From an uncultured candidate division Zixibacteria bacterium (GTDB taxonomy: Bacteria; Zixibacteria; MSB-5A5; UBA10806), in NCBI GenBank assembly GCA_963801605.1, contig CAWDFP010000005.1:1-64000 (forward strand): DNA of 64,000 nucleotides, given 5' to 3'. The position numbers and the translations under genes are program-made. Positions 13,550 to 32,017 of the stretch are shown here, piece by piece; the first letter of the stretch is position 1, and each line of letters opens with the position of its first letter. The notes beneath the pieces are model-generated. The model was not told the DNA's origin. It did no database searches and saw only the letters and a list, made by a program, of their open reading frames with translations.

Positions 13550-13598
13550 ATGCTTAAATTTACCCCCTTACATGCTCCGAAAAAATCCGTATTTCGAG

Positions 13599-13625
13599 TA
13601 AATTCGCTTCCCATACTGCCGATTA
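13599..13625 (+). promoter_or_regulatory. Sigma28 (FliA)-type promoter upstream of the sigma54 activator
   Basis: TAAA-15 nt-GCCGATTA (consensus TAAA-N15-GCCGATAA), just after the pal terminator. Confidence 0.75.
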
Positions 13626-13707
13626 GAATTATGTAAGGCCGCCCGATCGGGCGCGATGTAAACTGGCTTCCAAGTCCGGATCGCTTGTATCCGAGTTTTT
13701 GAGGAAT

Positions 13708-15135
13708 ATGCAGAAAAAATCGGTACTGGTCGTTGACGATGATCCGCAGATCGTAAAAGCGTTAGGCGAATGCCTTAATAATTTCGATTATGGTATGAAA
13801 GTCGCCACTACCGGGGCAGAGGCTCTACTGAAGATGGCCGATCCGGAGTTATCGCTTGTTATCCTCGATGTTAACCTGCCAGATTATTCCGGACTTGATA
13901 TCCTCAATAAAATAAAAGAAACCAATTCCAATTTGCCCGTCATTATTATAACCGGATTTATTTCGACCGAGGCCGCAATCGACGCCATGAAAATGGGCGC
14001 TTATGAGTTTGTAACCAAGCCCTTCAATCTCGATCGAATCTCCACGCTCGTAAATCGCGTCATGAAAAAATCCAGCCACCTGCGCGGATTGGAAACATTT
14101 TCCCGCGAGCCAAACCTGATCCCCGGCGAGATAATCGGACGATCATCCGAATTGATGGAGATTGCCAAAATTATCGGTCAGGTTGCGGCTACTGACGCCT
14201 CAGTTCTTATTATGGGTGAATCGGGTACCGGCAAGGAATTGGTGGCCAAATCTATCTACCGCAATTCACTGCGCAAAGATAAACCGTTTCTCTCTGTCAA
14301 TTGCGCCGCCTTGCCCGAAACGCTATTGGAATCGGAATTATTCGGTCATGAAAAAGGCTCGTTTACGGGTGCTTATACCCGTAAGCTGGGCAAGTTCGAG
14401 GTCTGCAACGGCGGCACCCTGCTGCTCGATGAAATTGCCGATATGAGCGCCCTGACTCAATCTAAAGTCCTGCGCGTTTTGCAGGAGCAGGAATTTGAAC
14501 GGGTCGGCGGAACAGAAACCATCAAAGTCGATGTGCGCATCATTGCGGCCACCAATAAATCGCTGGTAAATCTCATTAAGGAAAATAAGTTCAGGGTCGA
14601 CCTATTCTATCGTCTCAAAGTAGTTTCGATATATCTGCCGCCGCTTCGCGAACGGCGTTCCGATATTCCGATCCTGTGCGATCATTTTATCAGTATTTAT
14701 TCGAGAGAAACCGGTAAGGAAGTTCGCGGTATCTCCAAAACCGCTATGGACGGTTTAATGCGCTACTCCTGGCCGGGCAACGTTCGTGAACTGGAAAACA
14801 ATATTCATACCGCAGTTGTAATGGCAAAGGGCGATATCCTGTTGCCCGAAGACTTCCCGATTCTATCGGAGCATCGCGAGACGATCAGGATCGACTTGGA
14901 GCAGATCGAGGCCGATTATGCCAAAATGTTTTCGGATATTCTGACTCCCAATTTCGAGAAAATAGTCAGCATCTCGGGCAATCATCTTTATCATCACCTG
15001 CAATCCGGATTCGAAAAAGCTTTGATGTCGGCGGTTTTGAAATTCACCGGATCAAATCAGGTAAAAGCATCCGAATTGTTAGGCATTTCGCGCAATACCC
15101 TCCGAGATCGTATCAGTAAATACGGATTGTATTAG
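13708..15135 (+). CDS. Sigma54-dependent response regulator (NtrC/AtoC family: receiver, AAA+, Fis HTH)
   Basis: VVDDD, ILDVNLP, GESGTGKE, ESELFGHEKGSFTGA, LDEI, WPGNVREL, LGISRNTL; TTG at 13699 is an alternative start. Confidence 0.94.
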   Translation: MQKKSVLVVDDDPQIVKALGECLNNFDYGMKVATTGAEALLKMADPELSLVILDVNLPDYSGLDILNKIKETNSNLPVIIITGFISTEAAIDAMKMGAYEFVTKPFNLDRISTLVNRVMKKSSHLRGLETFSREPNLIPGEIIGRSSELMEIAKIIGQVAATDASVLIMGESGTGKELVAKSIYRNSLRKDKPFLSVNCAALPETLLESELFGHEKGSFTGAYTRKLGKFEVCNGGTLLLDEIADMSALTQSKVLRVLQEQEFERVGGTETIKVDVRIIAATNKSLVNLIKENKFRVDLFYRLKVVSIYLPPLRERRSDIPILCDHFISIYSRETGKEVRGISKTAMDGLMRYSWPGNVRELENNIHTAVVMAKGDILLPEDFPILSEHRETIRIDLEQIEADYAKMFSDILTPNFEKIVSISGNHLYHHLQSGFEKALMSAVLKFTGSNQVKASELLGISRNTLRDRISKYGLY

Positions 15136-19392: not shown

Positions 19393-19409
19393 ACGGCATA
19401 AACCTTGCT
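19393..19409 (+). promoter_or_regulatory. Sigma54 (-24/-12) promoter of the flhF'-flhG-fliA operon
   Basis: ACGGCATAAACCTTGCT = GG-N10-GC matching TGGCAC-N5-TTGC, 63 nt upstream of the first ORF. Confidence 0.8.
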
Positions 19410-19472
19410 TTAACACATTGCGAATGGGCAAGTTGGATCAAATACAAAACAGGATGAGCCGAGGAGGCCGAT

Positions 19473-19787
19473 GTGATAGTTAAAACTTACACAGCCCCTG
19501 ATCTCGAAAAGGCTCTCTGGCTTTTGAGTGAAGATTTGGGACCTGCCGCTACTATTCTTAGAACGCGTTTCGCTAACGCTGCATCGAATCCCAATCATCC
19601 AATCAAATTTGTCGAAATAATTGCCGCCCTCGAATCGTCGCTTCACGGCCGGCAAGACCTGCAATGTCAGCCCCAAAAATCGATCAAATCATCAAATAGG
19701 ATAAAGCGCGCCAAAAAAGCGGGCGTCTCCAAAAGAGAAACAAGCCCTGAAAATTATCCTGATTTCTTCGAGGTGGTGGGATGGTAA
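19473..19787 (+). CDS. FlhF N-terminal-domain-only protein (no SRP GTPase domain)
   Basis: GAGGAGG RBS; MIVKTYTAPDLEKAL...EDLGPAATILRTR...VEIIAALE matches the FlhF N-terminus; precedes flhG-fliA. Confidence 0.65.
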   Translation: MIVKTYTAPDLEKALWLLSEDLGPAATILRTRFANAASNPNHPIKFVEIIAALESSLHGRQDLQCQPQKSIKSSNRIKRAKKAGVSKRETSPENYPDFFEVVGW

Positions 19788-20566
19788 CTCCGATAAAGGC
19801 AATCGCGTTTGTAGCTGGTTCCGGCGGCACCGGACGAACTACAGTTGCTGCCAACCTGGCACATCTTCTTGCTCAGGACGGTCAAAAAGTGCTTCTGTCA
19901 GATCTCTGTTTTGGATGGGGCGGCCTCAATAGTTTCGCGTCCAGGCTGCCTTCATTCGAGAATCTCCTGGAATCTGACGGTAATCCTGAATCGATCATCT
20001 CACACTCCGATGACGGATTCGACTTAATGACCTGTGTCCCTCCTGAATTTGTTGATCTGGAAAATGATGATTTCAAAAAACTCGCCTGGGTATTGGATAG
20101 AGTTGGAACCGCCTATGATCTGGTCATCTATGATGCCCCCTCTGGTGGCCATCCGTTATCGCTTCTGGCAGCCGGGATGAGCAATCGAGTTTTCCTGTTT
20201 GCCCGCCCTGACGCCGCTTCGTTTGGCTCAGCCTTCACGCTTTTGAAATCACTTAATCAGGAAGGCATTAATTCCCGAATTAGATTTATATGCAATTTCG
20301 CGGAATCCGAGGATCACGCTGCTTCCATAAAAACCCGTTTCGATCTGGTCAGTGACCGCTACCTCGGTTTCAAGACCATCTCCGGCGGATATATTCTGCG
20401 TTGCCCCGAGCTTTTCGACGGCGATTTTCAGACCGGCGAGACCAATCGCGTTTCACAAACCCTGCTTGAGCATCTGGATTTAGCAGGCATTGTCTCGTTT
20501 CAAGATGAAACAACGGACAATTCAAGTTTGAACACCTTTCCAGACAGGATTTTTCAAAGACGATAA
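19781..20566 (+). CDS. FlhG/FleN-like MinD/ParA family protein with altered P-loop
   Basis: AGSGGTGRTTVAANLA, YDLVIYDAP, PDAAS...FTLLK, RYLG; between flhF' and fliA. Confidence 0.75.
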   Translation: MVTPIKAIAFVAGSGGTGRTTVAANLAHLLAQDGQKVLLSDLCFGWGGLNSFASRLPSFENLLESDGNPESIISHSDDGFDLMTCVPPEFVDLENDDFKKLAWVLDRVGTAYDLVIYDAPSGGHPLSLLAAGMSNRVFLFARPDAASFGSAFTLLKSLNQEGINSRIRFICNFAESEDHAASIKTRFDLVSDRYLGFKTISGGYILRCPELFDGDFQTGETNRVSQTLLEHLDLAGIVSFQDETTDNSSLNTFPDRIFQRR

Positions 20567-20601
20567 TAAAATGGATATCAATATTTAAGAAGGGCTGGAG
20601 T

Positions 20602-21360
20602 ATGGCAAATTTAGCAACATGGACACGTTTCAGGCAGACTAATGACGAACAGATGCGCACTAAGCTTCTGGCGGATTATCTGCCGCTGGTTAAAAATGTC
20701 GCCGGACGCCTGGCCGTGGGATTCCCCAAATCAGTCGAAATAAACGACCTTGTCAACACCGGCGTTATCGGTCTCATCGAGGCCTTCAATAATTTTGATC
20801 CCGAACGCGGCGTGAAATTTGAAACTTTCGCGGTTCCTCGTATCAGGGGCGCCATCCTTGACGAATTACGGGCCCTCGATTGGGTGCCGCGTTCCACCAG
20901 GGCCAAAGCCCGCAGTATGGATAAAGCCACCACTAAGCTCGAAAACGAACTCGGACGGGGGCCATCCGAAACGGAACTTGCCAGGGTGCTTAATGTCTCT
21001 ATGGAAGAATTGCATTACACCAAAAAGGACGTCAGCGTTACGTGCCTGCTCTCGCTCGATGAACTTATTTGCCGCGAAGATGATAACCGTCAGGTGCCGC
21101 GTATCGAGACCGTCGAAAACTCTACTACCGTCGATGTTCTCCAGGACATGGAAAAAACTGAACTTCGCGTCTTCCTGATTCATGCTATCAGCAATTTATC
21201 TGAACAGGAACGCTTGGTGGTCTCCCTTTATTATTACGAGGAGTTGACCCTAAAGGAAATCGGCGAAATTATGCTCATCTCCGAATCGAGAGTTTCCCAG
21301 ATTCACACTCGTGCGGTCAACCGTCTTAGAGCCATGATAAAAGACAAATTCGCAATTTAA
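20602..21360 (+). CDS. fliA: RNA polymerase sigma28 factor (FliA/WhiG family)
   Basis: YLPLVK.VA, FDPERGVKFETFA..RIRGAILDELR..DWVPRS, YYYEELTLKEIG....SESRVSQIH. Confidence 0.95.
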   Translation: MANLATWTRFRQTNDEQMRTKLLADYLPLVKNVAGRLAVGFPKSVEINDLVNTGVIGLIEAFNNFDPERGVKFETFAVPRIRGAILDELRALDWVPRSTRAKARSMDKATTKLENELGRGPSETELARVLNVSMEELHYTKKDVSVTCLLSLDELICREDDNRQVPRIETVENSTTVDVLQDMEKTELRVFLIHAISNLSEQERLVVSLYYYEELTLKEIGEIMLISESRVSQIHTRAVNRLRAMIKDKFAI

Positions 21361-21402
21361 AGGATAGCGCTTAATAAGCTTTGGAGAATTAAAGGGGATA
21401 TT

Positions 21403-21681
21403 ATGAATAACGGCTTGATCATCATCACAATGCTAACGCTCTGCAACTTCCTGATTTTTATAGCGCTTGTCGCCATCATTATCAAAGCCGGAGCCAGGGA
21501 ACGGAAATCCTCTTTTCGCCAGATTAATTCCACAACCAAAACGCCGGATTCATTACAAACTGCGGTAATAGACAAAATACAAATAAAGACTGCAATTGCA
21601 GGTGACAAAGTCTCATCTGATTACTTTGACGAATATGTGCCAAAATCCGCTAATAATCGGGAGGAGGCATTGGTTCGGTAA
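21403..21681 (+). CDS. Small hypothetical membrane-anchored protein
   Basis: AGGGGA RBS; N-terminal hydrophobic helix; no recognisable motif. Confidence 0.55.
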   Translation: MNNGLIIITMLTLCNFLIFIALVAIIIKAGARERKSSFRQINSTTKTPDSLQTAVIDKIQIKTAIAGDKVSSDYFDEYVPKSANNREEALVR

Positions 21682-21761
21682 CCGGATCGATGCAGAAAAA
21701 TCGCTTTCTGCCGATAGAGTGGACGATGATCGGAAAAGCTTTCGAGGAATAGATAAATTTA

Positions 21762-22505
21762 ATGAATAGAAAACGGATCACATCACAACAAATCCGGCTG
21801 GGATTATGGGAACGAGTCAGCCTGAATATCCAAAAGGATGGCAAATATTCCGAGTTTGCCTCACGTATCGAAGATATCAGACCGCAATCATATATCCTCG
21901 AAATGCCGATCAGGCAAAGCGGAGAATTAGCGCTTAGCAAGGGAGATAATGTGGAAGTTACATATAACAAAACCGATTCGATTTATTCTTTCAAAGCCAG
22001 CATCCTCGATTTTTTTGAGGAGGATGGGGCCGTTGAAATCCAGCAGAAATCAGAGCCTGCCCGTCTGCAGCGCCGCAAATTCATCAGAATAAATATCTCC
22101 GGCAAAATGAACCTGCGAACCCTCGATAATGATTCGGTTAAGGAAAAAGGACTGGGCCCGGATATACCGGGAACGTTACTCAATATCTCCGCCGGCGGGC
22201 TTCTCTTTGAGTGCGGGACAAAACTGACGGAAAATTCGCTGGTTCTGCTTAGCTTCTCTCTAAAGAGTCAGCATTCTCTTAAAAATATCCTGGCTATTAT
22301 CAAACGCTGCGAGGGCTCCAAAAACAAGGGTTATCTGATCGGAGCCGAATTTATCACCCGCGATAATTTTAAGGAACACGGGATGGAAAAACTCGATCAA
22401 TTCCTTCCTCCCGGATGCGGTACATTCGACGAAAATCTGCAGAAACTGGTTCTGCGCTTTATTTATGATCAGCAAATCAACGCTAAGGCTAAGGGCCAGG
22501 CATGA
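21762..22505 (+). CDS. YcgR-like c-di-GMP effector (PilZN + PilZ)
   Basis: QRRKFIR (RxxxR) and NISAGG (D/NxSxxG) motifs; N-terminal SRIEDI...Y.FKA. Confidence 0.85.
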   Translation: MNRKRITSQQIRLGLWERVSLNIQKDGKYSEFASRIEDIRPQSYILEMPIRQSGELALSKGDNVEVTYNKTDSIYSFKASILDFFEEDGAVEIQQKSEPARLQRRKFIRINISGKMNLRTLDNDSVKEKGLGPDIPGTLLNISAGGLLFECGTKLTENSLVLLSFSLKSQHSLKNILAIIKRCEGSKNKGYLIGAEFITRDNFKEHGMEKLDQFLPPGCGTFDENLQKLVLRFIYDQQINAKAKGQA

Positions 22506-22557
22506 AAATCCTTAATTTTTATTATTCAGATGGGTTGCGAAATATCGGGGATGGAAA

Positions 22558-23001
22558 ATGATTGAACAACCCCGCCAGGAAAGCCCGCCGAAAATGGATG
22601 ATTTTACGGGAAAGAAAATACTGGTGGTGGATGATAACGAATATGTTTGTGATATGATTTCGAAGACGCTGGAAAAATATTTGGGGCTGGAGGTTGTTAA
22701 GATCAACTGCGGAAGTCAGGCTATAGCGGCGGCTCTCACGGGCCGTTATGACGGTGCTATTATCGATCTGGCGTTGCAGGGGACTTCAGGCAGCAAGGTG
22801 GTCCGTACTATCAAGACCATGTTGCCGGCCTTGCCGATTTTATCAATATGCGCTCAGCCTACCGATGAGATGCTCTCATCTCTCAAGCGCTATGGTATCA
22901 ACCGCGTTCTGCGAAAGCCTTTTAAGATGACAATACTCATTGATGAGATAACAGAGATGCTGAGAGTCAACAAGACTGTGACTTCTCGGGAATTACGATA
23001 A
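22558..23001 (+). CDS. Single-domain response regulator
   Basis: ILVVDD, AIIDL (phospho-Asp), LRKPF. Confidence 0.85.
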   Translation: MIEQPRQESPPKMDDFTGKKILVVDDNEYVCDMISKTLEKYLGLEVVKINCGSQAIAAALTGRYDGAIIDLALQGTSGSKVVRTIKTMLPALPILSICAQPTDEMLSSLKRYGINRVLRKPFKMTILIDEITEMLRVNKTVTSRELR

Positions 23002-23004
23002 ACT

Positions 23005-23862
23005 ATGGAGGAGCGAGTGCCCGAAGCTATCAAAAAATCGGCTGCAATTAATGCGGAGCAGGAGATCAAGGTGTTGGGGGAAATTTCTGTAATGGTGCAG
23101 GGTTCGCCTGTTGAAAAAAGCTCATTTGAAGAAATACTCAATCATCTCGGAAAGATCGTAGATTTTCGCTCAGCATCATTATTTTTATCGCCTAAAAAGG
23201 GCGGTCAGGTGGAGGAAGTCTGTACCGTCGGACGGCGCGTGGACCTGATCGATTTCGTCAACTTCGATATGGGAAGCGGTATCTCGGCCTGGGTTGCCAA
23301 ACATGGCCGCGCGATTGTCCTTAACAATCTTAGAAAATCCAAAGGTGGTACGCATACCAAGTCATTTATCTCCGTTCCTATGGTTTTTGCCAAAGAGATT
23401 ATCGGAGTCATCAACCTCGCCCATGACGAGCCCGACTCCTTCAGCAAACGCGATATCGAAATCGTTTCCATCGCTGCTTCAATTATTGCTCTCCTGGCCG
23501 AGCGTCTCGCTCATGAGCGATTCCTGGCCGAAAAAGCCGCCGAGGTTGCCGCGCTTGAGCAGAAACTTGAGACTGCCAGGCAGACAAAAATCGAATCTGA
23601 GAAGGCGCCAATTATGGGAAATCCCGGAGCTTCCCTCTCTCAAAAGCTATCTAATCCGCTGGCTATCATTTCCGGTAACGCGCAATTCCTGATGATGACA
23701 CTCAAAACCGCCAATCCCTCAATCATCAAGCGGCTTAAGGCTATCGATAAGGAGGCCGGAAATATAGCAGATTTATCACGCAATAATCTAGATGCTCCAT
23801 CCGATTCCCGAATCGACCATCTTTTTAAGTCCCGGATGGAAGAAGCGCAAATCGGCTCGTAA
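23005..23862 (+). CDS. GAF-domain protein with degenerate HisKA helix and no ATPase domain
   Basis: GSGISAWVA, SFISVPM, IIGVINL, FSKRD; then SQKLSNPLAIISGNAQ. Confidence 0.75.
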   Translation: MEERVPEAIKKSAAINAEQEIKVLGEISVMVQGSPVEKSSFEEILNHLGKIVDFRSASLFLSPKKGGQVEEVCTVGRRVDLIDFVNFDMGSGISAWVAKHGRAIVLNNLRKSKGGTHTKSFISVPMVFAKEIIGVINLAHDEPDSFSKRDIEIVSIAASIIALLAERLAHERFLAEKAAEVAALEQKLETARQTKIESEKAPIMGNPGASLSQKLSNPLAIISGNAQFLMMTLKTANPSIIKRLKAIDKEAGNIADLSRNNLDAPSDSRIDHLFKSRMEEAQIGS

Positions 23863-23883
23863 TGAGCAAATTGCCTTGTCGAA

Positions 23884-25608
23884 ATGCCTGTTACTGTCGA
23901 AATAACGCCCGATAAAAAAGCCCTGGGAAGCCCCGCTCTCCTCTTCAGGCTTGATTCTAATCGTAAAGTTTCAGCCCGTCACGGAGACGAATTCGCCGGA
24001 ATCGCCATTTCTGATTCCAATTCATTTTTCTCCGATATCCTTCCTTTAAATAATGTCGAAATTGATAGGGCTATATCGAGCGCCTTTGATGGTTATCCGA
24101 GCACGGCCAATTATCAAGTCGAAACAGAGGGGCAGACGATTTTCTGCGAATTGCATTGTATTCCTCATAAAAGCGGCAATCAAACTAATATCGCCTGTGT
24201 GCTGATAAACAGAACTGATGACCAGGCCAGGGCCGCTCGCCTCGAATCGGACGTTTACCTTCTCGATATCATCGGTCAGGCCGTCCGGGCATTTGCCGAA
24301 ACCAGGAATCTTTCGGAAATCTTACGCATAATTCTTCTGGGAGTCACTGCCGGGCCGGGACTCGGTTTCAATAGAGGCTTTGTCCTGCTCTGTAACGAAG
24401 CCCGTACATATCTTTGGGGATGCTTAGCCACTGGACCTTCGACACCCGAAGAAGCCGGGGCCATCTGGCAGGAACTTACCAGCCGCTCGCTGACACTCGA
24501 GGAAATTCTCAGGCTGTATAAATCTTCAAACCAGAGCGCTGCCGATATTCATGTCAATAAGCTCGTAGCCACTTTGAAAATTCCGCTTTCTAACGAATCA
24601 AATTTTATTATCAGGGCGGTGAAATCGGGACGCTCCCTGATTACCGGCCCGGACTTAACTGATGACCGGGGAAACTTGCTGCTCAAGGAAGAGTTCGGGA
24701 CCGACCGCATGGCGATTGTGCCCCTGATCTCCCGCGAGGGCCTGCAGGGTGTTTTGTTGGCGGATAATCTCATCACCCAGAAGCCAATCACTGAGGCCGA
24801 ACTTAAGATTCTGGAGATTTTTGCGCGCTATGCTTCCGACGCCATTGAAAATTCCCGCCTGTATGGACGACTTGAGCAGCAGATTTGCCGCCTGAAAGAG
24901 GCTAATGCCAAAATTATCCAATCTCGAGAAAATTTAATCAGGGCCGAGAAGCTTTCGAGCGTTGCCAAAATTGCGCTCGATGTTGCACATGAAATCCGCA
25001 ATCCCTTGACCGTTATCGGTGGTTATGCCAATTCATGTTTACATAAGCTTTCTCCTGATGATCCCTCATACCGCTTTTTCGATATCATTTCGAGGCAGTC
25101 CACCCGTATAGAAAACGCTCTGGATCGCTTTTCCAGCGTGGTTACTCTAAGCGAAAAGCGTGAGGGACGATACCGTCTGGTAAACCTGGTACGCGAGTCC
25201 CTGGCCATTCTTTCGAATGATACCAATCCCGATTTACCGCTTCTGGTCGCTGACCAGGAGGCCGCAAATCTTGATGTATATTTGGATCAGGGGCTGTTTT
25301 ATCAAACAATGATGGTCATCCTGCGGAAATCATCCGAGATAGCCGGCGGCATGGCCAATATTTCGGTAAAAGTAACCCGCAAGGGCGAAACCGGAGTAAT
25401 CTATATTCTGGGCAGTGATAATTGTCCAGGATTTGCCGAAAATTTCTATAGAGGTCTTAGAGACAGCAGTGGTGAACTTAAAAATCAGGAAATGGCGGTG
25501 GCGCTTGAAATCCTGCAGCATTATGGCGGCGGGATTGGAATCGTATCCGAAAACAAAGGTCCCATGCGCTTATATGTGGAATTTCCCTTGTATAAGGAGG
25601 ACGTGTGA
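23884..25608 (+). CDS. GAF-containing sensor histidine kinase-like protein with degenerate HATPase domain
   Basis: GVTAGPGLGFNRGF GAF variant; EKLSSV...VAHEIRNPLTVIGG H-box; N and G2 boxes not recognisable. Confidence 0.82.
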   Translation: MPVTVEITPDKKALGSPALLFRLDSNRKVSARHGDEFAGIAISDSNSFFSDILPLNNVEIDRAISSAFDGYPSTANYQVETEGQTIFCELHCIPHKSGNQTNIACVLINRTDDQARAARLESDVYLLDIIGQAVRAFAETRNLSEILRIILLGVTAGPGLGFNRGFVLLCNEARTYLWGCLATGPSTPEEAGAIWQELTSRSLTLEEILRLYKSSNQSAADIHVNKLVATLKIPLSNESNFIIRAVKSGRSLITGPDLTDDRGNLLLKEEFGTDRMAIVPLISREGLQGVLLADNLITQKPITEAELKILEIFARYASDAIENSRLYGRLEQQICRLKEANAKIIQSRENLIRAEKLSSVAKIALDVAHEIRNPLTVIGGYANSCLHKLSPDDPSYRFFDIISRQSTRIENALDRFSSVVTLSEKREGRYRLVNLVRESLAILSNDTNPDLPLLVADQEAANLDVYLDQGLFYQTMMVILRKSSEIAGGMANISVKVTRKGETGVIYILGSDNCPGFAENFYRGLRDSSGELKNQEMAVALEILQHYGGGIGIVSENKGPMRLYVEFPLYKEDV

Positions 25609-25961
25609 AGAATATTTTGATTGTTGATGATGAAGATGATATCCGCGCTCTATATGAAATCGAATTGAGCGGCGAGGGATTCAAAACGCATTCCGTTTCC
25701 ACCGGTGAGGAAGCTTTACAGTATGTAGCGGCCAATCCCGATGTCGACCTGGTAATTCTCGATATCAAGCTCGGCCAAATGGATGGGCTTAAGGTTCTGG
25801 AGGAACTTCGTAATAAGAAAACTACCATGCCGGTAATCCTGAATTCGGCATATTCCACCTACAAAAGCAATTTCAACTCCTGGCTGGCTGACGCTTACCT
25901 GGTAAAATCGTCCAATCTTTCCGAACTTAAAAATCAGGTCAAGGAGCTGCTGGCGTTTTGA
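25605..25961 (+). CDS. Single-domain response regulator
   Basis: ILIVDDE, VILDIKL, PVILNSAY, YLVKS. Confidence 0.9.
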   Translation: MKNILIVDDEDDIRALYEIELSGEGFKTHSVSTGEEALQYVAANPDVDLVILDIKLGQMDGLKVLEELRNKKTTMPVILNSAYSTYKSNFNSWLADAYLVKSSNLSELKNQVKELLAF

Positions 25962-26326
25962 TCTCTTCGGGAGAAAATGGTACCGACAAAATCCTGACCC
26001 GTCTGGAAGGGGTTTCAGGCGAGATTCAGCTTCTGGCGCTTAATATCGCTGTGGCGGCGGCTAAGATCGCCCACAAGCAGGATTTGGGGCTGGAGGTAAA
26101 CCAGCGTCTTTCGCAATTGGTTAATCAAGCCACCCAGGCTGTCAAGCAGATGAATCAAATCCTGACTCTGGCAGGCTCCAATAGCAGTCAGTATGCCGGC
26201 GCTGATGATAAAAAGGGATTAGATCATGAGTCCATCGAAGGCATAGAAAATTCGATGGAATCTATTATCTCGGACTCGGAGAAGATCACTCGGATCCTCT
26301 CTAATATCAAAAAAAGAGAGCCTTAA
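25958..26326 (+). CDS. Small protein resembling an MCP signalling hairpin tip
   Basis: EIQLLALNIAVAAAK resembles QTNLLALNAAIEAAR; coiled coil; no TM or sensor domain. Confidence 0.55.
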   Translation: MISSGENGTDKILTRLEGVSGEIQLLALNIAVAAAKIAHKQDLGLEVNQRLSQLVNQATQAVKQMNQILTLAGSNSSQYAGADDKKGLDHESIEGIENSMESIISDSEKITRILSNIKKREP

Positions 26327-26327
26327 A

Positions 26328-26726
26328 ATGTCTAAAGGCACGATTCTCATCGTCGAAGATGAATTGGATATTGCTGATATCCTGGGGGAGATGCTCCAGC
26401 TTTTTGGCTATAATACCATCGCTGTCTCCGATGGTATTGACGCCTGGTGTCAGGTATCCGCCAAAGAGTTCGATTTGGTGCTCACCGATCTGCGCCTTCC
26501 GGGCATGGATGGCATTGAACTTCTGACCAAGATGCGCTTGCATGATATTAAAACGCCGGTTCTTTTGATTTCCGGCGTCGATCTGCAGGGACGTCTTTCC
26601 ATCTCGGGTAACATGGGATTGATCGATACTATTCAAAAGCCGTTTAAGATAGATGATCTTAAGGAAAAGATTATCGCTCTTCTCAAAAATTCCAAACCTC
26701 ATCAAAATAAAACTAAACACAAATAG
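26328..26726 (+). CDS. Single-domain response regulator
   Basis: ILIVEDE, VLTDLRLPGMDG, LLISG, IQKPF. Confidence 0.9.
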   Translation: MSKGTILIVEDELDIADILGEMLQLFGYNTIAVSDGIDAWCQVSAKEFDLVLTDLRLPGMDGIELLTKMRLHDIKTPVLLISGVDLQGRLSISGNMGLIDTIQKPFKIDDLKEKIIALLKNSKPHQNKTKHK

Positions 26727-26829
26727 CTGATTTTCCCGTCTCCTTTTGATTCCTATTAAAGCCCTTTCATAACGATATTTATGGTATCGAGGCGCCGTGG
26801 CTTACTGTTCACAAGTGAAAAACTATTGA

Positions 26830-26856
26830 TAATAATGCCCGATTTACAACCGATAA
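26830..26856 (+). promoter_or_regulatory. Putative sigma28 promoter of flgN-like-csrA-fliW
   Basis: TAAT-15 nt-ACCGATAA, 8 nt before ATG 26865. Confidence 0.5.
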
Positions 26857-26864
26857 ATATATTA

Positions 26865-27317
26865 ATGATAGACAAAATCCAGAACTTGATTTCCATTTTA
26901 GTCCGGGAGGAGGAGCTTTTCAGGGAATTCTCCCGCCTGCTTGCCTCCAATTGCGATGGCGCCGATAAGGCGGAAATCACAAGTGAGATGGCAGATCGTT
27001 TGGAGAACCTATCCATGTTTGCCCTGGGGCTTGAATCCTTAACCCAAAATCTGACTGACATTTGCCCAAACTCCGTCGGTCCGGCATCCCGGAAAAGTAT
27101 TGGACAGCTTATCGATAAGACTACCTCGCAGGCATTAAGCAACTTGGCTAACCTGGGCGAAATTATTAATAGATCAAATTACAAAGCGCAGGAACGCAGC
27201 AAACAGACTGAACAATTAATTGATAAATCCAGCCAAATACTATCAGAAACTTCAGTATCGATTGGTAATAATCTGATGAGCATTCGGCACATTCCAAAAG
27301 GGGAACTGGTGTGCTGA
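26865..27317 (+). CDS. FlgN-like helical protein (divergent)
   Basis: [26 protein letters not shown] pattern and L.EIIN.SN...LI recall FlgN; upstream of csrA-fliW; ATG 26781 is an alternative start. Confidence 0.5.
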
Positions 27318-27556
27318 TTCTAACGCGCAAAGCCGGCGAAGCCGTGACGATTGGCGATGATATTAAAATCACCGTTCTGAGCATTCAGGGCAAACAGGTG
27401 AAGCTTGGTATCGCGGCTCCGGAAAAAGTAAGCGTCTACCGCGATGAAATCTTTAAGCGGATACAACTCGAGAATGTCAAAGCCTCACTTTCGCTCAAAG
27501 AGGACCTTCAGGAACTGGCCCGTCTGATTAAGGCCAGGAAAAAAGATTCAAACTAA
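27311..27556 (+). CDS. csrA: Carbon storage regulator
   Basis: [34 protein letters not shown]-terminal extension typical of FliW-regulated CsrA. Confidence 0.95.
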
Positions 27557-27594
27557 ACAGATCGAGAATAATCTCGCTGTAACGGAGTGAATCG

Positions 27595-28050
27595 GTGATA
27601 CTGGAAACAAGCAGATTTGGAAAGTTAAATTATAAAAAAGGCGATATCGTCCTGATGGCCAAAGGGCTATTGGGTTTCGAGGAGCATAAGCAGTTCATCA
27701 TTGTCTCTCCCGAGGATCAGGATCCATTCAAGTGGCTTCAATCTGTTGATGACCCCTCGCTGGCCTTTCTGGTAATCGATCCATCCATCGTGAAAAGCGA
27801 TTATAAAATCGAAATCAGTCCAAAGGACATGGCTCTTTTAGAAGCTAAAAATGTCAAAGACTTGCACACCTATCTTCTGGTAGCTATCCCCAGCGGTCAA
27901 ATCAATAAGATCACAGCCAATTTGCAGGCTCCCATTATTATCAATCAATCCAATCTGAAGGCGCTTCAACTGATTATCAGTGAAAGCGGCTATTTCCCGC
28001 AATATCCCATATTCGACCTGCTTGGGAAAATACTTCCTGACAAAATTTAA
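27595..28050 (+). CDS. fliW: Flagellar assembly factor / CsrA antagonist
   Basis: ETSRFG, GLLGFE, PFKWLQS, LAFLVIDP, TANLQAPIIIN. Confidence 0.93.
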   Translation: MILETSRFGKLNYKKGDIVLMAKGLLGFEEHKQFIIVSPEDQDPFKWLQSVDDPSLAFLVIDPSIVKSDYKIEISPKDMALLEAKNVKDLHTYLLVAIPSGQINKITANLQAPIIINQSNLKALQLIISESGYFPQYPIFDLLGKILPDKI

Positions 28051-28093
28051 CCGTCTTTTCGTTCACTATTGACTCAACTTCCAAATTAGTATC

Positions 28094-28121
28094 TAAAGAA
28101 TTTTGCGCTTTTTGTCGATTA
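28094..28121 (+). promoter_or_regulatory. Putative sigma28 promoter
   Basis: TAAA-16 nt-GTCGATTA upstream of the FlgM-like ORF. Confidence 0.6.
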
Positions 28122-28178
28122 ATACTATAGAAGTCATGATTTTTACTTCTAAGTTTAATTTCTCTTTTAGGGGGATTT

Positions 28179-28484
28179 CTGAGCCAGCAGGAAAATAGAC
28201 AAGATAGCGATCGATTGGAGTTGGTGAGAACACATGTCGCCAGCGGCTTTTACAATCGACGGGATATAGTCGAGGCTACTGCCAGCGCCATAATCCGCAG
28301 CCAGGCCCTGCATATTATCCTGGATCGCTATGAGTTGGAGCATTCCCTGAAATTCGGACAAAAGTCGCCTGAAGACCCCAAAATTACTGAAATTCGACGA
28401 AAAATCGATGATGGCTTCTATGACGATCCCAACAATCTGGCTGAGTTGGTCGAAAAACTGATAAAAAAGTTCGGAATAGAATAA
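28179..28484 (+). CDS. FlgM-like anti-sigma28 protein with two copies of the C-terminal motif
   Basis: DRLELVRTHVASGFY and PKITEIRRKIDDGFY...LVEKLI both match FlgM KVxxIKxxIxxGxY; AGGGGG RBS before CTG 28179 (TTG 28215 alternative). Confidence 0.6.
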   Translation: MSQQENRQDSDRLELVRTHVASGFYNRRDIVEATASAIIRSQALHIILDRYELEHSLKFGQKSPEDPKITEIRRKIDDGFYDDPNNLAELVEKLIKKFGIE

Positions 28485-28661: not shown

Positions 28662-29673
28662 ATGACAATATCTGACCTGGAGCATTTTAAGAGCCTGCTG
28701 GAAGAACGCGAGCATAACCTGCTCGAATGGCTACAGCTTCCCGATCCCGCTGCTTCCGATGATATATCCAAGACGCGCGCCCTTTTAGGCGAAATCAAAG
28801 AAGCCTTAAAACGGATCGAGGATCATTCTTATGGCGCCTGTAATGTTTGTAAAGGCAGTATCGAGTTGTACCGTCTCGAAATTCAGCCTGTTACCGAGGT
28901 TTGCCTGAGTTGTATCAGCGATCATGATCGCGTCCAGCTTGAGGAGGAACTCTTTCTGGCCAGCAAAATCCATCGGGCTTTGCTGCCGCAGGCAGTTGAG
29001 AAAATCGATGGTTTCGATATCGCTGTAAGATCGATGGCTTCGCGTATTGTGGGAGGCGATTATTATGATTTTCTGAGATCATCGAATTCAAATCTGATCA
29101 GAATAATTATCGCCGATACTATGGGCAAAGGCCTGCCCGCCGGCCTTCTGATGTCTAATGTTCAGGGAGCGCTTCGGGTACTCGCCGAGGAGTTGACATC
29201 GCCCAAAGATTTAATTTCCAGGCTCAACCAGTGGCTATGCCGCAACGTGCCTGTTACCAAATTTATATCCCTAATTTGCGTCGGGTTGGAAACGAACCAT
29301 GGATCGAGCCTGACTTATACCAATGCCGGTCATTGTCCCGCTATCCTTGTCAGACAAAATGGAAAAATCGAAAGGCTTAATCCTACCGGCGGAGTTATCG
29401 GTGTTCACCAGGGCTTTATCTATGAGGAAAAAAACCTGCCAATTTCATCCGGAGATTTGCTGCTTGCTCTATACGGACGGCATCGTTGAATCTCAATGCG
29501 TGGATGGTGAGATGTTCGGCGATGAGCGCTTGATCGAATATGTCTGCGATCATAAAAACGCCGATGTTAATGAGCTTATCGATGGCCTTATAGGCAATGT
29601 CAAAGTTTTTTCCGCCAATTCCACGTTTGAAGACGATTTAACGGTAATGGCTGTTCGTAAGACTACAATCTAA
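28662..29673 (+). CDS. PP2C/SpoIIE (RsbU-like) phosphatase with N-terminal DksA/TraR C4 zinc finger; indel near 29465
   Basis: YGACNVC...RLE..P....CLSC; VGGDYYD, ADTMGKG, NAGH; LLYTDG and EDDLT continue in the 29323 frame. Confidence 0.88.
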
Positions 29674-29755
29674 AGTAACTTTCGCTGTTGCTGCCTGTGG
29701 ATGATCGTCTGCTACAGGGATTCCCGGATATCCCCTTTCATGCTTGATTTTTCCC

Positions 29756-29998: not shown

Positions 29999-30042
29999 TT
30001 AATTTGGAAGGAGATAGATTTTTAATTTATTCTTTTAATTGT

Positions 30043-30075
30043 GCGGCTACTCCTTCCGGGTAGTCCGCTTTTTTT
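30043..30075 (+). terminator. Terminator-like hairpin between tRNA-Val and thrS
   Basis: GCGGCTACTC-CTTCC-GGGTAG(T)CCGC + T7. Confidence 0.7.
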
Positions 30076-30082
30076 ATTTATT

Positions 30083-32017
30083 ATGGCAACTGTGAAAATA
30101 AAATTTCCCGATGGCTCCGTAAAGGATTACGAGAGCCCGATAACTCCCGCCCAGATCGCGGCCTCTATATCTCGTTCGCTGGCTGCGAAAGCGTTGGCGG
30201 CCTCGGTCAACGGCAAGGTGGTCGACCTGTCATTTCCCATTACGAATGACGGCGAGATTCGCATTCTGACTTTTGATGATCCCGAAGGCCGTGAAGTATT
30301 CTGGCACTCGTCTGCTCACCTGATGGCCTCCGCTATCATGGAACTGATTCCGGAAACCAGGTTGGCCATTGGGCCATCCATACCCGACGATTTCTCGGCT
30401 CGATTCTATTATGATCTCGATATTCCCCGCAAGCTGACCGATGCCGATCTTGAGAAGATTGAAAAAAAGATGCTCGAGATTGCCGCCAAAGATTTTCCCT
30501 TTCAAAGGCGTGAGGCCAATCGGTTGGACGCTCTAAAAGAGTTCCGGAGCGAGGGCGATATCTATAAGGCCGAGATGGCCTCCGAAATGACCGATGACAC
30601 CGTCAGTTTCTATACTCACGGCAATTTTACCGATATGTGTCGCGGCCCGCACCTGCCATCGACTGCCCCAATTAAAGCCGTCAAGCTGCTCTCTGTGGCC
30701 GGCGCTTATTGGCGCGGTGACGAGCGCAATAAAATGCTTCAGCGTATCTACGGAATCACTTTCCCCGATAAAAAGATGCTGGACGAGCACCTGCATAAAA
30801 TCGAGGAAGCTAAGAAACGCGATCACCGCTTTTTGGGACGGGACCTCGATCTATTCTCTATCGTTGACGAAGTCGGCGCCGGACTGGTGCTCTGGCATCC
30901 GCGTGGCGCCTTAATAAGGCATCTCATCGAAAGGTTCTGGAAAGATGAGCACTTCAAAAACGGCTACGATCTCGTTTACTCACCTCACGTAGCCAAGCTC
31001 GATCTCTGGAATACCTCAGGCCATACCGGATTCTATTCGGAAAATATGTATCAACCGATGCCGGTAGAAAATGTTGAATACGAAATTAAGCCGATGAACT
31101 GCCCGTTCCATATTCAGATGTACAAAGCGCATACCAGAAGCTATCGCGATTTGCCGTTTCGCTGGGCCGAGCTTGGCACCGTCTACCGCTATGAGCGCTC
31201 AGGAGTTTTGCACGGCTTGATGAGAGTCCGTGGCTTTACTCAGGATGATGCTCATATCTTTTGCCGTCCGGATCAATTAACCGATGAGCTTGTCAGGACC
31301 ATCAATTTTAATCTCTTCTTCCTGAAAACTTTCGGTTTTAAGGATTACGACGTATTCCTTTCCACTCGGCCGGATAAATTCGTAGGTACTCCCGAGGGTT
31401 GGGAGATTGCCACCGCCGCTTTGAAAACTGCCCTTGAAACCGCCAAACTCGAATACCAGGTCGATCCCGGCGAAGGCGTTTTTTACGGACCTAAAATCGA
31501 TATTAAAATTAAGGATAATCTGGGACGTTCCTGGCAATGCACTACTATCCAGGTGGACTTCAATCTTCCGGAACGGTTCGACATGGAATACAGCGCCGAG
31601 GATGGTACCCGGCAGCAGCCGATTATGATTCATCGGGCCTTGCTTGGCTCTATGGAACGCTTTTTCGGAATCCTGATAGAACAATACGCCGGTAATTTCC
31701 CGGTTTGGCTGGCGCCGGAACAAATTCGTATTCTGCCGGTCACCGATGACTGGAATGCTTATGCCAAAGAGCTAAGTGCCAAATTTCTGGCCGCTGACCT
31801 GAGAGTTAGCGTGGATGAATCGAGCGAGAAAATCGGCAAAAAGATTCGCAACGCCGAAAATATGAAAGTTCCTTACATGGCTGTTGTCGGAAAGGCCGAG
31901 GCTGAAACCGGCGAACTCTCGCTTCGCAAGCACAAGATCGGTGATTTGGGCAAAATGCCGGCGGCGGCGGTAATCGAACGTCTTAAAGCCGAGGAAACTC
32001 AAAAGGCGCTTGATTGA
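30083..32017 (+). CDS. thrS: Threonine--tRNA ligase
   Basis: TGS domain, HSSAHL, DMCRGPH, RDHR, KPMNCP, RVRGFTQDDAHIF, FYGPKID, HRA. Confidence 0.97.
   Translation: MATVKIKFPDGSVKDYESPITPAQIAASISRSLAAKALAASVNGKVVDLSFPITNDGEIRILTFDDPEGREVFWHSSAHLMASAIMELIPETRLAIGPSIPDDFSARFYYDLDIPRKLTDADLEKIEKKMLEIAAKDFPFQRREANRLDALKEFRSEGDIYKAEMASEMTDDTVSFYTHGNFTDMCRGPHLPSTAPIKAVKLLSVAGAYWRGDERNKMLQRIYGITFPDKKMLDEHLHKIEEAKKRDHRFLGRDLDLFSIVDEVGAGLVLWHPRGALIRHLIERFWKDEHFKNGYDLVYSPHVAKLDLWNTSGHTGFYSENMYQPMPVENVEYEIKPMNCPFHIQMYKAHTRSYRDLPFRWAELGTVYRYERSGVLHGLMRVRGFTQDDAHIFCRPDQLTDELVRTINFNLFFLKTFGFKDYDVFLSTRPDKFVGTPEGWEIATAALKTALETAKLEYQVDPGEGVFYGPKIDIKIKDNLGRSWQCTTIQVDFNLPERFDMEYSAEDGTRQQPIMIHRALLGSMERFFGILIEQYAGNFPVWLAPEQIRILPVTDDWNAYAKELSAKFLAADLRVSVDESSEKIGKKIRNAENMKVPYMAVVGKAEAETGELSLRKHKIGDLGKMPAAAVIERLKAEETQKALD

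Follow-up and report, generated by a model that had tools for sequence, protein, structure and literature searches.

Apparent repeated loss of the flagellum in Zixibacteria with retention of its regulatory genes, and a probable link of sigma28 to type IV pili and cell polarity

The 64,000-nucleotide stretch analyzed here (hereafter, the window; positions 1 to 64,000 of contig CAWDFP010000005.1 in assembly GCA_963801605.1, from an uncultured Zixibacteria bacterium) contains a 9 kb cluster of flagellar regulatory genes, including those for the sigma factor FliA (sigma28), CsrA, FliW and an FlgM-like anti-sigma factor. This cluster is the Zixibacteria flagellar super-operon from which the structural genes were deleted in place. 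Sequence comparison across the phylum suggests that Zixibacteria appear to have lost the flagellum on at least five separate occasions, yet kept the regulatory genes under selection. FliA was probably kept since, as indicated by predicted promoters, it was already driving type IV pilus and cell-polarity genes before the loss. This explanation builds on what was observed, namely, deletion in place, repeated retention of the regulators, purifying selection and conserved promoter-like sites. Throughout, G000 is the genome holding the window, the other G numbers are the Zixibacteria genomes compared with it, and L and f numbers denote loci and families, respectively.

The origin of the cluster is apparent from comparison with G188, a member of the same family that carries one continuous flagellar cluster. 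Its left part consists of motAB, flgBC, fliEFGHIJ, two reverse-strand genes, motE to flhA, flhF, flhG and fliA. After fliA come genes for a transmembrane protein, PilZ, a response regulator, a GAF protein, a histidine kinase, a response regulator, a mini-MCP and two more response regulators, followed by flgFGAHIJ and flgN. The right part runs from flgN through flgK, csrA, flgL, fliW, TPR and sugar-modification-type genes, fliC, fliD, fliS, fliT, flgM and an HD-domain gene to thrS (the labels fliT, motE and HDOD were assigned from position). The window cluster has the same order minus the structural genes, and is flanked by the same S8 peptidase, which the larger of the two reverse-strand genes of G188 resembles, and by thrS. 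The open reading frames (ORFs) all lie on the forward strand at the coordinates and in the order given by the initial annotation, and both promoters that it proposed hold up as sites, the sigma54-type one matching those before flgB, motE, fliR and flgF in flagellated relatives. Pfam and NCBIfam searches detected in the cluster PilZNR and PilZ, three receiver domains, GAF, HisKA and a weak MCPsignal match. The features are as follows.

19393..19411, +: sigma54-type promoter (GG-N10-GC), most similar to the site before fliR-flhB-flhA-flhF-flhG-fliA of flagellated relatives.
19473..19787, +: FlhF N-terminal remnant of 104 amino acids (aa) without the GTPase domain; full length in relatives 371-471 aa.
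19781..20566, +: FlhG/MinD-type ATPase with the P-loop GSGGTGRTT, a variant common to flagellated family members.
20602..21360, +: FliA (sigma28), with 84% identity to FliA from the flagellar cluster of G188.
21403..21681, +: small ORF with a hydrophobic segment at the N-terminus; positional homologue in flagellated clusters.
21762..22505, +: PilZNR-PilZ (YcgR-like) protein, RxxxR and NxSxxG motifs intact.
22558..23001, +: single-domain response regulator, receiver domain match.
23005..23862, +: GAF protein with a weak HisKA tail, domain match.
23884..25608, +: kinase-like protein with GAF and HisKA domains; the H-box HEIRNP is intact and the ATP-binding domain is degenerate, as it is in flagellated f1/f2 relatives.
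25605..25961, +: single-domain response regulator, receiver domain match.
25958..26326, +: mini MCP-signal-like protein, weak MCPsignal match.
26328..26726, +: single-domain response regulator, receiver domain match.
26781..27317, +: orthologue of FlgN that has diverged strongly, with 23% identity to that of G106.
27311..27556, +: CsrA with the C-terminal helix and N55, the FliW-contact residue; above the TIGR00202 cut-off.
27595..28050, +: FliW; N108 and Q124 equivalents kept, K123 replaced as in flagellated f1/f2.
28092..28123, +: sigma28-type promoter TAAA-N16-GTCGATTA, 18.8 bits on a matrix from 14 fliC/motA promoters.
28179..28484, +: FlgM-like anti-sigma factor without the N-terminal ~50 aa of flagellated orthologues; the first standard start is TTG at 28215, and CTG at 28179 may be used instead.
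30041..32017, +: thrS, which in relatives also adjoins the flagellar cluster on its right; a conserved synteny anchor outside the circuit.
13596..13699, +: region upstream of the gene for a sigma54-dependent response regulator (13699-15132), with a sigma28-type site of 19.9 bits; the regulator is a candidate target within the window.

Between the cluster and thrS, positions 28662-29676 of the window encode a DksA-type zinc finger fused to a SpoIIE phosphatase, in two frames that were probably split by an assembly indel.

The lack of flagellar structural genes, which the initial annotation reported for the window, extends to the whole genome. Among 38 structural, export and motor proteins of G188, 34 have no tblastn match in G000, and the other four yield partial matches at 26-37% identity that we read as paralogues. 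Flagellin_N, FHIPEP (FlhA) and CheW have no match anywhere in the genome (86.9% complete), and no complete flagellar gene set was found. Conversely, the sigma54 kinase/regulator pair that precedes motA in G188 persists on contig C2 of G000 (regulator 74% identical). The G000 assembly contains indel-type breaks in rpoB, pilB and pilT, so that small lesions private to this assembly are uncertain.

Among 251 genomes of the phylum, Flagellin_N was detected in 206, FlhA in 205 and FliW in 230, and flagellin is missing in 45, of which 20 were named directly and 25 inferred from family tallies. The 44 flagellin-negative genomes other than G000 (including G209 and G248, which are 81% complete and probably just incomplete, G248 having FlhA) keep fliA in 41 cases, csrA in 38 and FliW in 32. 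Of the 36 genomes with both fliA and csrA, 33 have them on the same strand at a distance of 2.5-7.1 kb, compared with 11-15 kb in flagellated G030 and G188. Gene maps of the reduced loci show csrA throughout, and fliA and pilZ wherever the contig covers them, with the GAF, kinase, receiver, FlgN and FliW genes varying among genomes. FlgM was identified in 24 of 35 reduced loci (8 of these in the training set), being missing at the locus in f6, f13 and f17, and FlgN in 16 of 35 (many of these in the training set); FlhG was not detected on the maps of reduced clusters outside family f1.

In an RpoB tree of 31 chosen genomes, the distribution of flagella requires seven state changes, at least five of which are forced by supported branches, and a single origin of the flagellin-negative state was recovered in 0 of 200 bootstraps. 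Given the conserved gene order and the decay intermediates or leftover flagellar fragments in G083, G217, G106 and G149, these changes are probably losses rather than gains. The first described Zixibacteria genome was itself called non-flagellated (PMC3903129).

Two observations on the flagellar genes of the phylum stand apart. Part of family f12 (L285:383-15364 in G165 and L287:23-13201 in G124; also G177 and G093) keeps, directly before fliA, the block fliF-fliH-fliI-fliJ-fliM-fliN-fliO-fliP-fliQ-fliR-flhB (short, ~260 aa)-flhA. The fetched region contains no fliG, rod, hook or stator gene, flagellin is missing from the genome, and the FlhA is only 40% identical to flagellar FlhA; the block looks like an export apparatus derived from the flagellum, possibly a young non-flagellar type III secretion system. 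G085, a flagellated single-contig genome, has no CheW match and thus apparently has flagella but no chemotaxis.

The retained genes evolve under purifying selection. The ratio of nonsynonymous to synonymous substitution rates (dN/dS) between flagellum-less pairs is 0.03-0.17 for fliA (11 of 15 pairs measurable, the others saturated), 0.02-0.31 for csrA (13 of 14), 0.05-0.27 for fliW (7 of 10) and 0.11-0.25 for flgN (3 of 4). The weakest values, 0.48 for pilZ and 0.68 for one receiver, both come from very close pairs. Because most G000 pairs are saturated and the sisterhood of G000 and G106 is uncertain (supported by the FliA tree, 96/85, but not by the half-length RpoB row), the selection claims rest on pairs within wholly flagellum-less groups. 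The proposal of the initial annotation that a regulatory skeleton was kept without the flagellum is supported, the retention being repeated and under purifying selection.

These data bear directly on the possibility that the flagellar genes were merely not assembled, or that the regulators are simply the last to go. The incompleteness of G000 and of the two 81%-complete genomes speaks for it, as does the fact that FlhF and FlgN do decay. The deletion, however, is internal to a continuous contig, between conserved flanks; the single-contig or near-complete genomes G037, G089, G020, G038 and G007 also lack flagellin and FlhA, with no rod or FliG family found in any of the five; and flagellin and FlhA are both missing from all 27 sampled members of five whole families, in which dN/dS is nevertheless far below 1 where measured. 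We consider simple decay or missing assembly to be largely refuted and its probability minimal.

Turning to the individual regulators, FliA scores 268.7 bits on TIGR02479 (FliA/WhiG; cut-off 189.6), and sigma regions 2, 3 and 4 are all present. In the FliA tree, most family groups are recovered and G000 falls inside f1. By this tree, its matching position and its identity to the G188 protein, G000 FliA is a true orthologue of the flagellar-cluster FliA and not a paralogue. Its closest named relatives are 17 loci at 71-90% identity, from Ca. Zixibacteria or unclassified metagenome-assembled genomes, three of them labelled Ignavibacteria. More distant homologues (~41% identity) occur in Gemmatimonadaceae (L048-L061); at the 7 of these 14 loci that were checked, there is no flagellar or cluster gene nearby, so these are possibly stand-alone sigma28s. 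CsrA (TIGR00202) and FliW both exceed the family cut-offs, and the PilZ protein has the sequence features of a c-di-GMP receptor, with intact RxxxR and (D/N)xSxxG motifs in a genome with three GGDEF matches over the cut-off.

Of the parts thought to have eroded, FlhF does lack its GTPase domain, the remnant aligning with positions 1-80 only of TIGR03499; the same remnant tail occurs in L031 and not in G106. FlgN is divergent, as had been noted, and the ORF is the sole G000 match of a Zixibacteria FlgN profile (E 6.6e-7). The view that FlhG and the kinase eroded with the flagellum fails, because the P-loop GSGG[ST]GRT and the degenerate ATP-binding domain occur alike in fully flagellated relatives, so that both states predate the loss. 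What does track the loss is limited to three changes: truncation of FlhF, shortening of FlgM at its N-terminus and rapid divergence of FlgN in G000.

The FlgM-like ORF alone scores 16.4 bits on PF04316, below the cut-off of 25; among the aligned orthologues, 13 of 14 match PF04316 at E<=1, the two best PDB matches of the orthologue profile are both FlgM (E 0.012 and 0.056), and the ORF lies at the position of flgM in relatives. The N-terminal ~50 aa are missing in both G000 and G106. A segment with a 'GFY' motif occurs twice in the protein, as it does in G106, G188, G119 and G028, which suggests an internal repeat of the FlgM sigma-binding region. Among the CsrAs encoded in reduced clusters, 35 of 36 have the contact residue N55; in the exception, from G007 (L081), a genome without a FliW match, it is replaced by H, which we interpret as a natural case of a contact residue decaying after loss of the partner. 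Three other FliW-less genomes keep N55. The K123-D41 pair is absent from family f1, flagellated members included. Many reduced clusters (f7, f10, f13 and some f16) also keep an unannotated ~390-aa cysteine-motif protein between fliA and pilZ (L123:16846-18027 and homologues; no NCBIfam match), which is lost in G000 and G106.

What FliA might transcribe was assessed with a promoter matrix built from 14 fliC/motA promoters of flagellated genomes. A scan of the entire G000 genome, a check that the initial annotation had proposed, yielded 36 intergenic sites of at least 14 bits facing gene starts, compared with 8.4 in shuffles, and the site density facing gene starts is 9.9 per 100 kb vs 4.1 in the other orientation. 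The predicted targets include pilM, pilT, a second PilT-family gene, a GspH-type pilin, pilA and a prepilin peptidase, as well as a TPR-roadblock-GTPase-mglB-pilB operon, many response regulators and a GGDEF protein. G000 encodes a type IVa pilus (PilM, PilN, PilO, secretin, PilB, PilT, PilC, pilin and prepilin peptidase by Pfam/NCBIfam, which did not identify PilP), with the pilB and pilT frames split in the assembly. The operon, a Myxococcus-like polarity and pilus operon on contig C6 (L139:2003-12866, G000 C6:1027003-1037866), contains genes for DUF4388, TPR, two roadblock proteins, a Ras/Arf-type GTPase, an MglB-like protein, PilB with an MshEN domain, PilT, PilC and a PAS kinase.

We then compared 30 genomes from 18 families, 17 flagellum-less and 13 flagellated, in which pilM (30/30), pilT (29/30), pilin (30/30) and the TPR gene of the polarity operon (29/30) are nearly universal. 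With a threshold of 10 bits, sites lie before pilM in 24 of 30 genomes, before pilT in 23 of 28 (one genome lacks a match and another has too short a leader) and before the TPR-mgl operon in 19 of 29, vs 5 of 30 for rpoB in a largely overlapping set; on the opposite strand, the counts are 0, 1 and 1 for pilM, pilT and TPR-mgl. The published consensus TAAA-N15/16-GCCGATAA, with at most two mismatches (the criterion used in PMC8325347), occurs within 200 bp in 26 of 30 genomes for pilM, 19 of 28 for pilT, 13 of 29 for TPR-mgl and 2 of 30 for rpoB, the antisense counts being 0, 0, 0 and 2. The top strand-biased 6-mers of the 87 pilM, pilT and TPR-mgl leaders are GTCGAT, TCGATA and CGATAA. Of the 17 reduced loci that were scanned, 9 have a sigma54-type site no more than 400 bp upstream of fliA, flhG or the first gene retained, and in another 3 such a site lies somewhat further upstream.

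Two candidate targets were rejected. A universal sigma28 promoter at pilA is not borne out, the gene having a sigma54-type site in 21 of the 30 genomes. A 358-aa receiver protein, with no NCBIfam match as RomR, is encoded in only 7 of the 30 and is no phylum-wide target. The top sigma28-type site of G000 (22.1 bits; L141:3678-6390 on contig C6) lies only 4-7 bp before the first start of a metallophosphoesterase/AAA-ATPase pair that resembles SbcD/SbcC.

Several points weigh against the pilus connection. The use of these sites by FliA is likely, but is read from predicted promoters, and such prediction over-called the sigma28 regulon of Chlamydia, where 2 of 10 predicted promoters were confirmed in vivo (PMC10597470). 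The rpoB control consists partly of coding sequence and so is not a matched intergenic control, the genomes compared are non-independent samples, and the sample includes no well-assembled flagellum-less lineage that has lost fliA and could serve as a counter-test. At 10 bits, flagellated genomes are less regular (pilM 8/13, pilT 8/13, mgl 5/13); only 6 of the 30 genomes have a sigma28-type site at pilA; many of the other top-scoring targets in G000 have no relation to pili; and the 14 sigma70-family region-2 matches in G000 leave room for another sigma factor reading the motif. Finally, the pilus link accounts for fliA, not for csrA and fliW: ANGGA counts in G000 leaders were uninformative, with no GGA array in the pilA leader, and this search found no CsrA target.

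If another sigma factor did read the TAA-N15/16-G(T/C)CGATAA motif before the pil genes, FliA would be kept for other targets. Beyond the number of sigma70-family matches, this would fit the frequent TTAA/TCAA and GTCGAT/GACGAT boxes of the pil sites, which are not canonical. The same GTCGA variant, however, precedes fliC in family f1, and 26 of the 30 pilM sites are within two mismatches of the flagellar consensus, so we regard this alternative as very improbable.

The initial annotation proposed that the skeleton had been rewired to control another programme. A non-flagellar output, type IV pili and polarity, is indeed indicated; rewiring after the loss is not, as flagellated G188, G085 and G030 carry the sites. 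New targets gained by flagellum-specific regulators once the flagellum was gone could explain the greater regularity and, often, strength of the sites in flagellum-less genomes (at 10 bits, pilT 15/15 vs 8/13, mgl 14/16 vs 5/13 and the 358-aa receiver 3/4 vs 0/3), and the loss of the FlgM N-terminus in G000 and G106 also fits. Nevertheless, flagellated G188, G085, G028, G030 and G070 already have sites at matching positions, and it is more parsimonious to assume inheritance than to suppose that at least five losses converged on one set of new promoters. Rewiring thus seems unlikely, and because the pilM, pilT and mgl sites are also present in flagellated sisters, we favour retained pleiotropy.

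FliA could conceivably also owe its retention chiefly to a broader or different programme, such as signalling, stress or an essential gene, with pili as one part or incidental. Top G000 sites precede response regulators, hybrid kinases, the GGDEF protein, the nuclease/ATPase pair and FHA or Ser/Thr kinase genes, and N-terminal receiver genes are enriched (3/9 at >=12 bits vs 62/1953). The targets conserved phylum-wide, however, are the three pilus/polarity operons (other targets were examined in G000 only), and the limited spread of the 358-aa receiver gene does not help this alternative, which we view as rather unlikely.

Under retained pleiotropy, the sigma54 promoter would transcribe fliA, with the kinase/regulator pair on contig C2 as the likely activator. 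FliA would then transcribe pilMNO-Q, pilT-pilC-kinase and the TPR-roadblock-GTPase-mglB-pilB operon, along with response regulators and a diguanylate cyclase, all of them preceded by sites. With the major pilin mostly sigma54-driven, sigma28 would build the machine and act on the pilin only indirectly, perhaps through a relay from the kinase after pilC to the sigma54-driven pilin. Input from c-di-GMP could enter via PilZ and the MshEN domain found in PilB. CsrA-FliW, PilZ and the GAF, kinase-like and receiver genes, and in many lineages FlgM, stay under selection and would probably tune the pilus programme, with FlhF and most FlgN and FlhG copies as dispensable passengers.

More tentatively, and with well under even odds, the flagellar sigma54-to-sigma28 cascade of Zixibacteria could act as the master circuit of motility, serving a Myxococcus-like system of pilus and Mgl polarity. 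Both mechanical checkpoints would have disappeared after each of the at least five losses, so that FlgM and FliW would have to be released by new, non-flagellar signals, possibly via PilZ and the kinase-like phosphorelay genes. If so, a sigma28/FlgM switch independent of export and a FliW/CsrA switch independent of flagellin would have arisen in parallel. Two questions follow: what releases FliA from FlgM when there is no export, and what releases CsrA from FliW when there is no flagellin. More generally, the phylum offers a natural replicated experiment on which parts of the network of a complex organelle outlive the organelle, and why; the answer is likely pre-existing pleiotropy, with a named target set. 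The prediction is sigma28-controlled, pilus-based surface motility in a widespread uncultured phylum.

Judged by their defining features, the G000 locus is not a flagellar system, a three-part flagellin switch or an export-coupled FlgM system. Export gate, ring, rod, hook, filament and stator genes were not found in G000. CsrA has the C-terminal helix and N55 and FliW the Q124 equivalent, but flagellin, the alternative FliW partner, is present in neither G000 nor the 44 other sampled genomes. Export-gated release of FlgM finds no export gate genes, and the FlgM N-terminal segment is gone. By the title of one paper, FliA and FlgM also occur in the non-flagellated species Legionella oakridgensis.

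As in the Hag-FliW-CsrA switch of Bacillus subtilis, in which CsrA N55 is needed for FliW binding (bioRxiv 10.1101/2020.07.02.184341), N55 and the FliW N108/Q124 equivalents are kept; unlike there, no flagellin is available to titrate FliW and the K123-D41 pair is absent in f1. Chlamydia trachomatis likewise has a FliA without a flagellum, downstream of sigma54 and driving non-flagellar genes; its sigma28, as described in PMC10597470, has a two-gene developmental regulon, no known anti-sigma factor and one ancient loss behind it, whereas in Zixibacteria the predicted pilus regulon is larger, FlgM is part of it all and the losses are many and recent. Non-motile lineages of Clostridioides difficile clade 5 also keep fliW and csrA after loss of flagellar assembly genes, but they keep and express flagellin, so that the partner switch is whole (PMC11898703); in Zixibacteria, flagellin is gone, 32 of the 44 negatives retain FliW, and the partners that stay constant are FliA and PilZ. 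Flagellar loss is covered by PMC10746217, PMC13063649 and PMC12199754, whose accessible parts describe no case of a retained regulatory core, and FliW-CsrA in Geobacter biofilms by PMC13407953; among titles and opening lines of abstracts on Zixibacteria flagella or type IV pili, with subscription journals outside the search, we found nothing on regulation.

The closest parallel is with the WhiG of Rubrobacter radiotolerans and the FliA/WhiG of Actinoplanes, flagellar-clade sigma28 factors with predicted promoters in type IV pilus operons and before c-di-GMP enzymes (PMC8325347; PMC12871210), the Actinoplanes sigma serving both flagella and pili. There, the anti-sigma factor is the c-di-GMP-armed RsiG, and WhiG2 forms a clade separate from the cluster-linked WhiG1 (PMC8325347; PMC12871210); RsiG is described as limited to Actinomycetota (PMC12871210). 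In Zixibacteria, by contrast, a Gram-negative phylum with a type IVa/Mgl system and repeated losses, the cluster-linked FliA stays at the flagellar locus together with FlgM, CsrA, FliW and PilZ.

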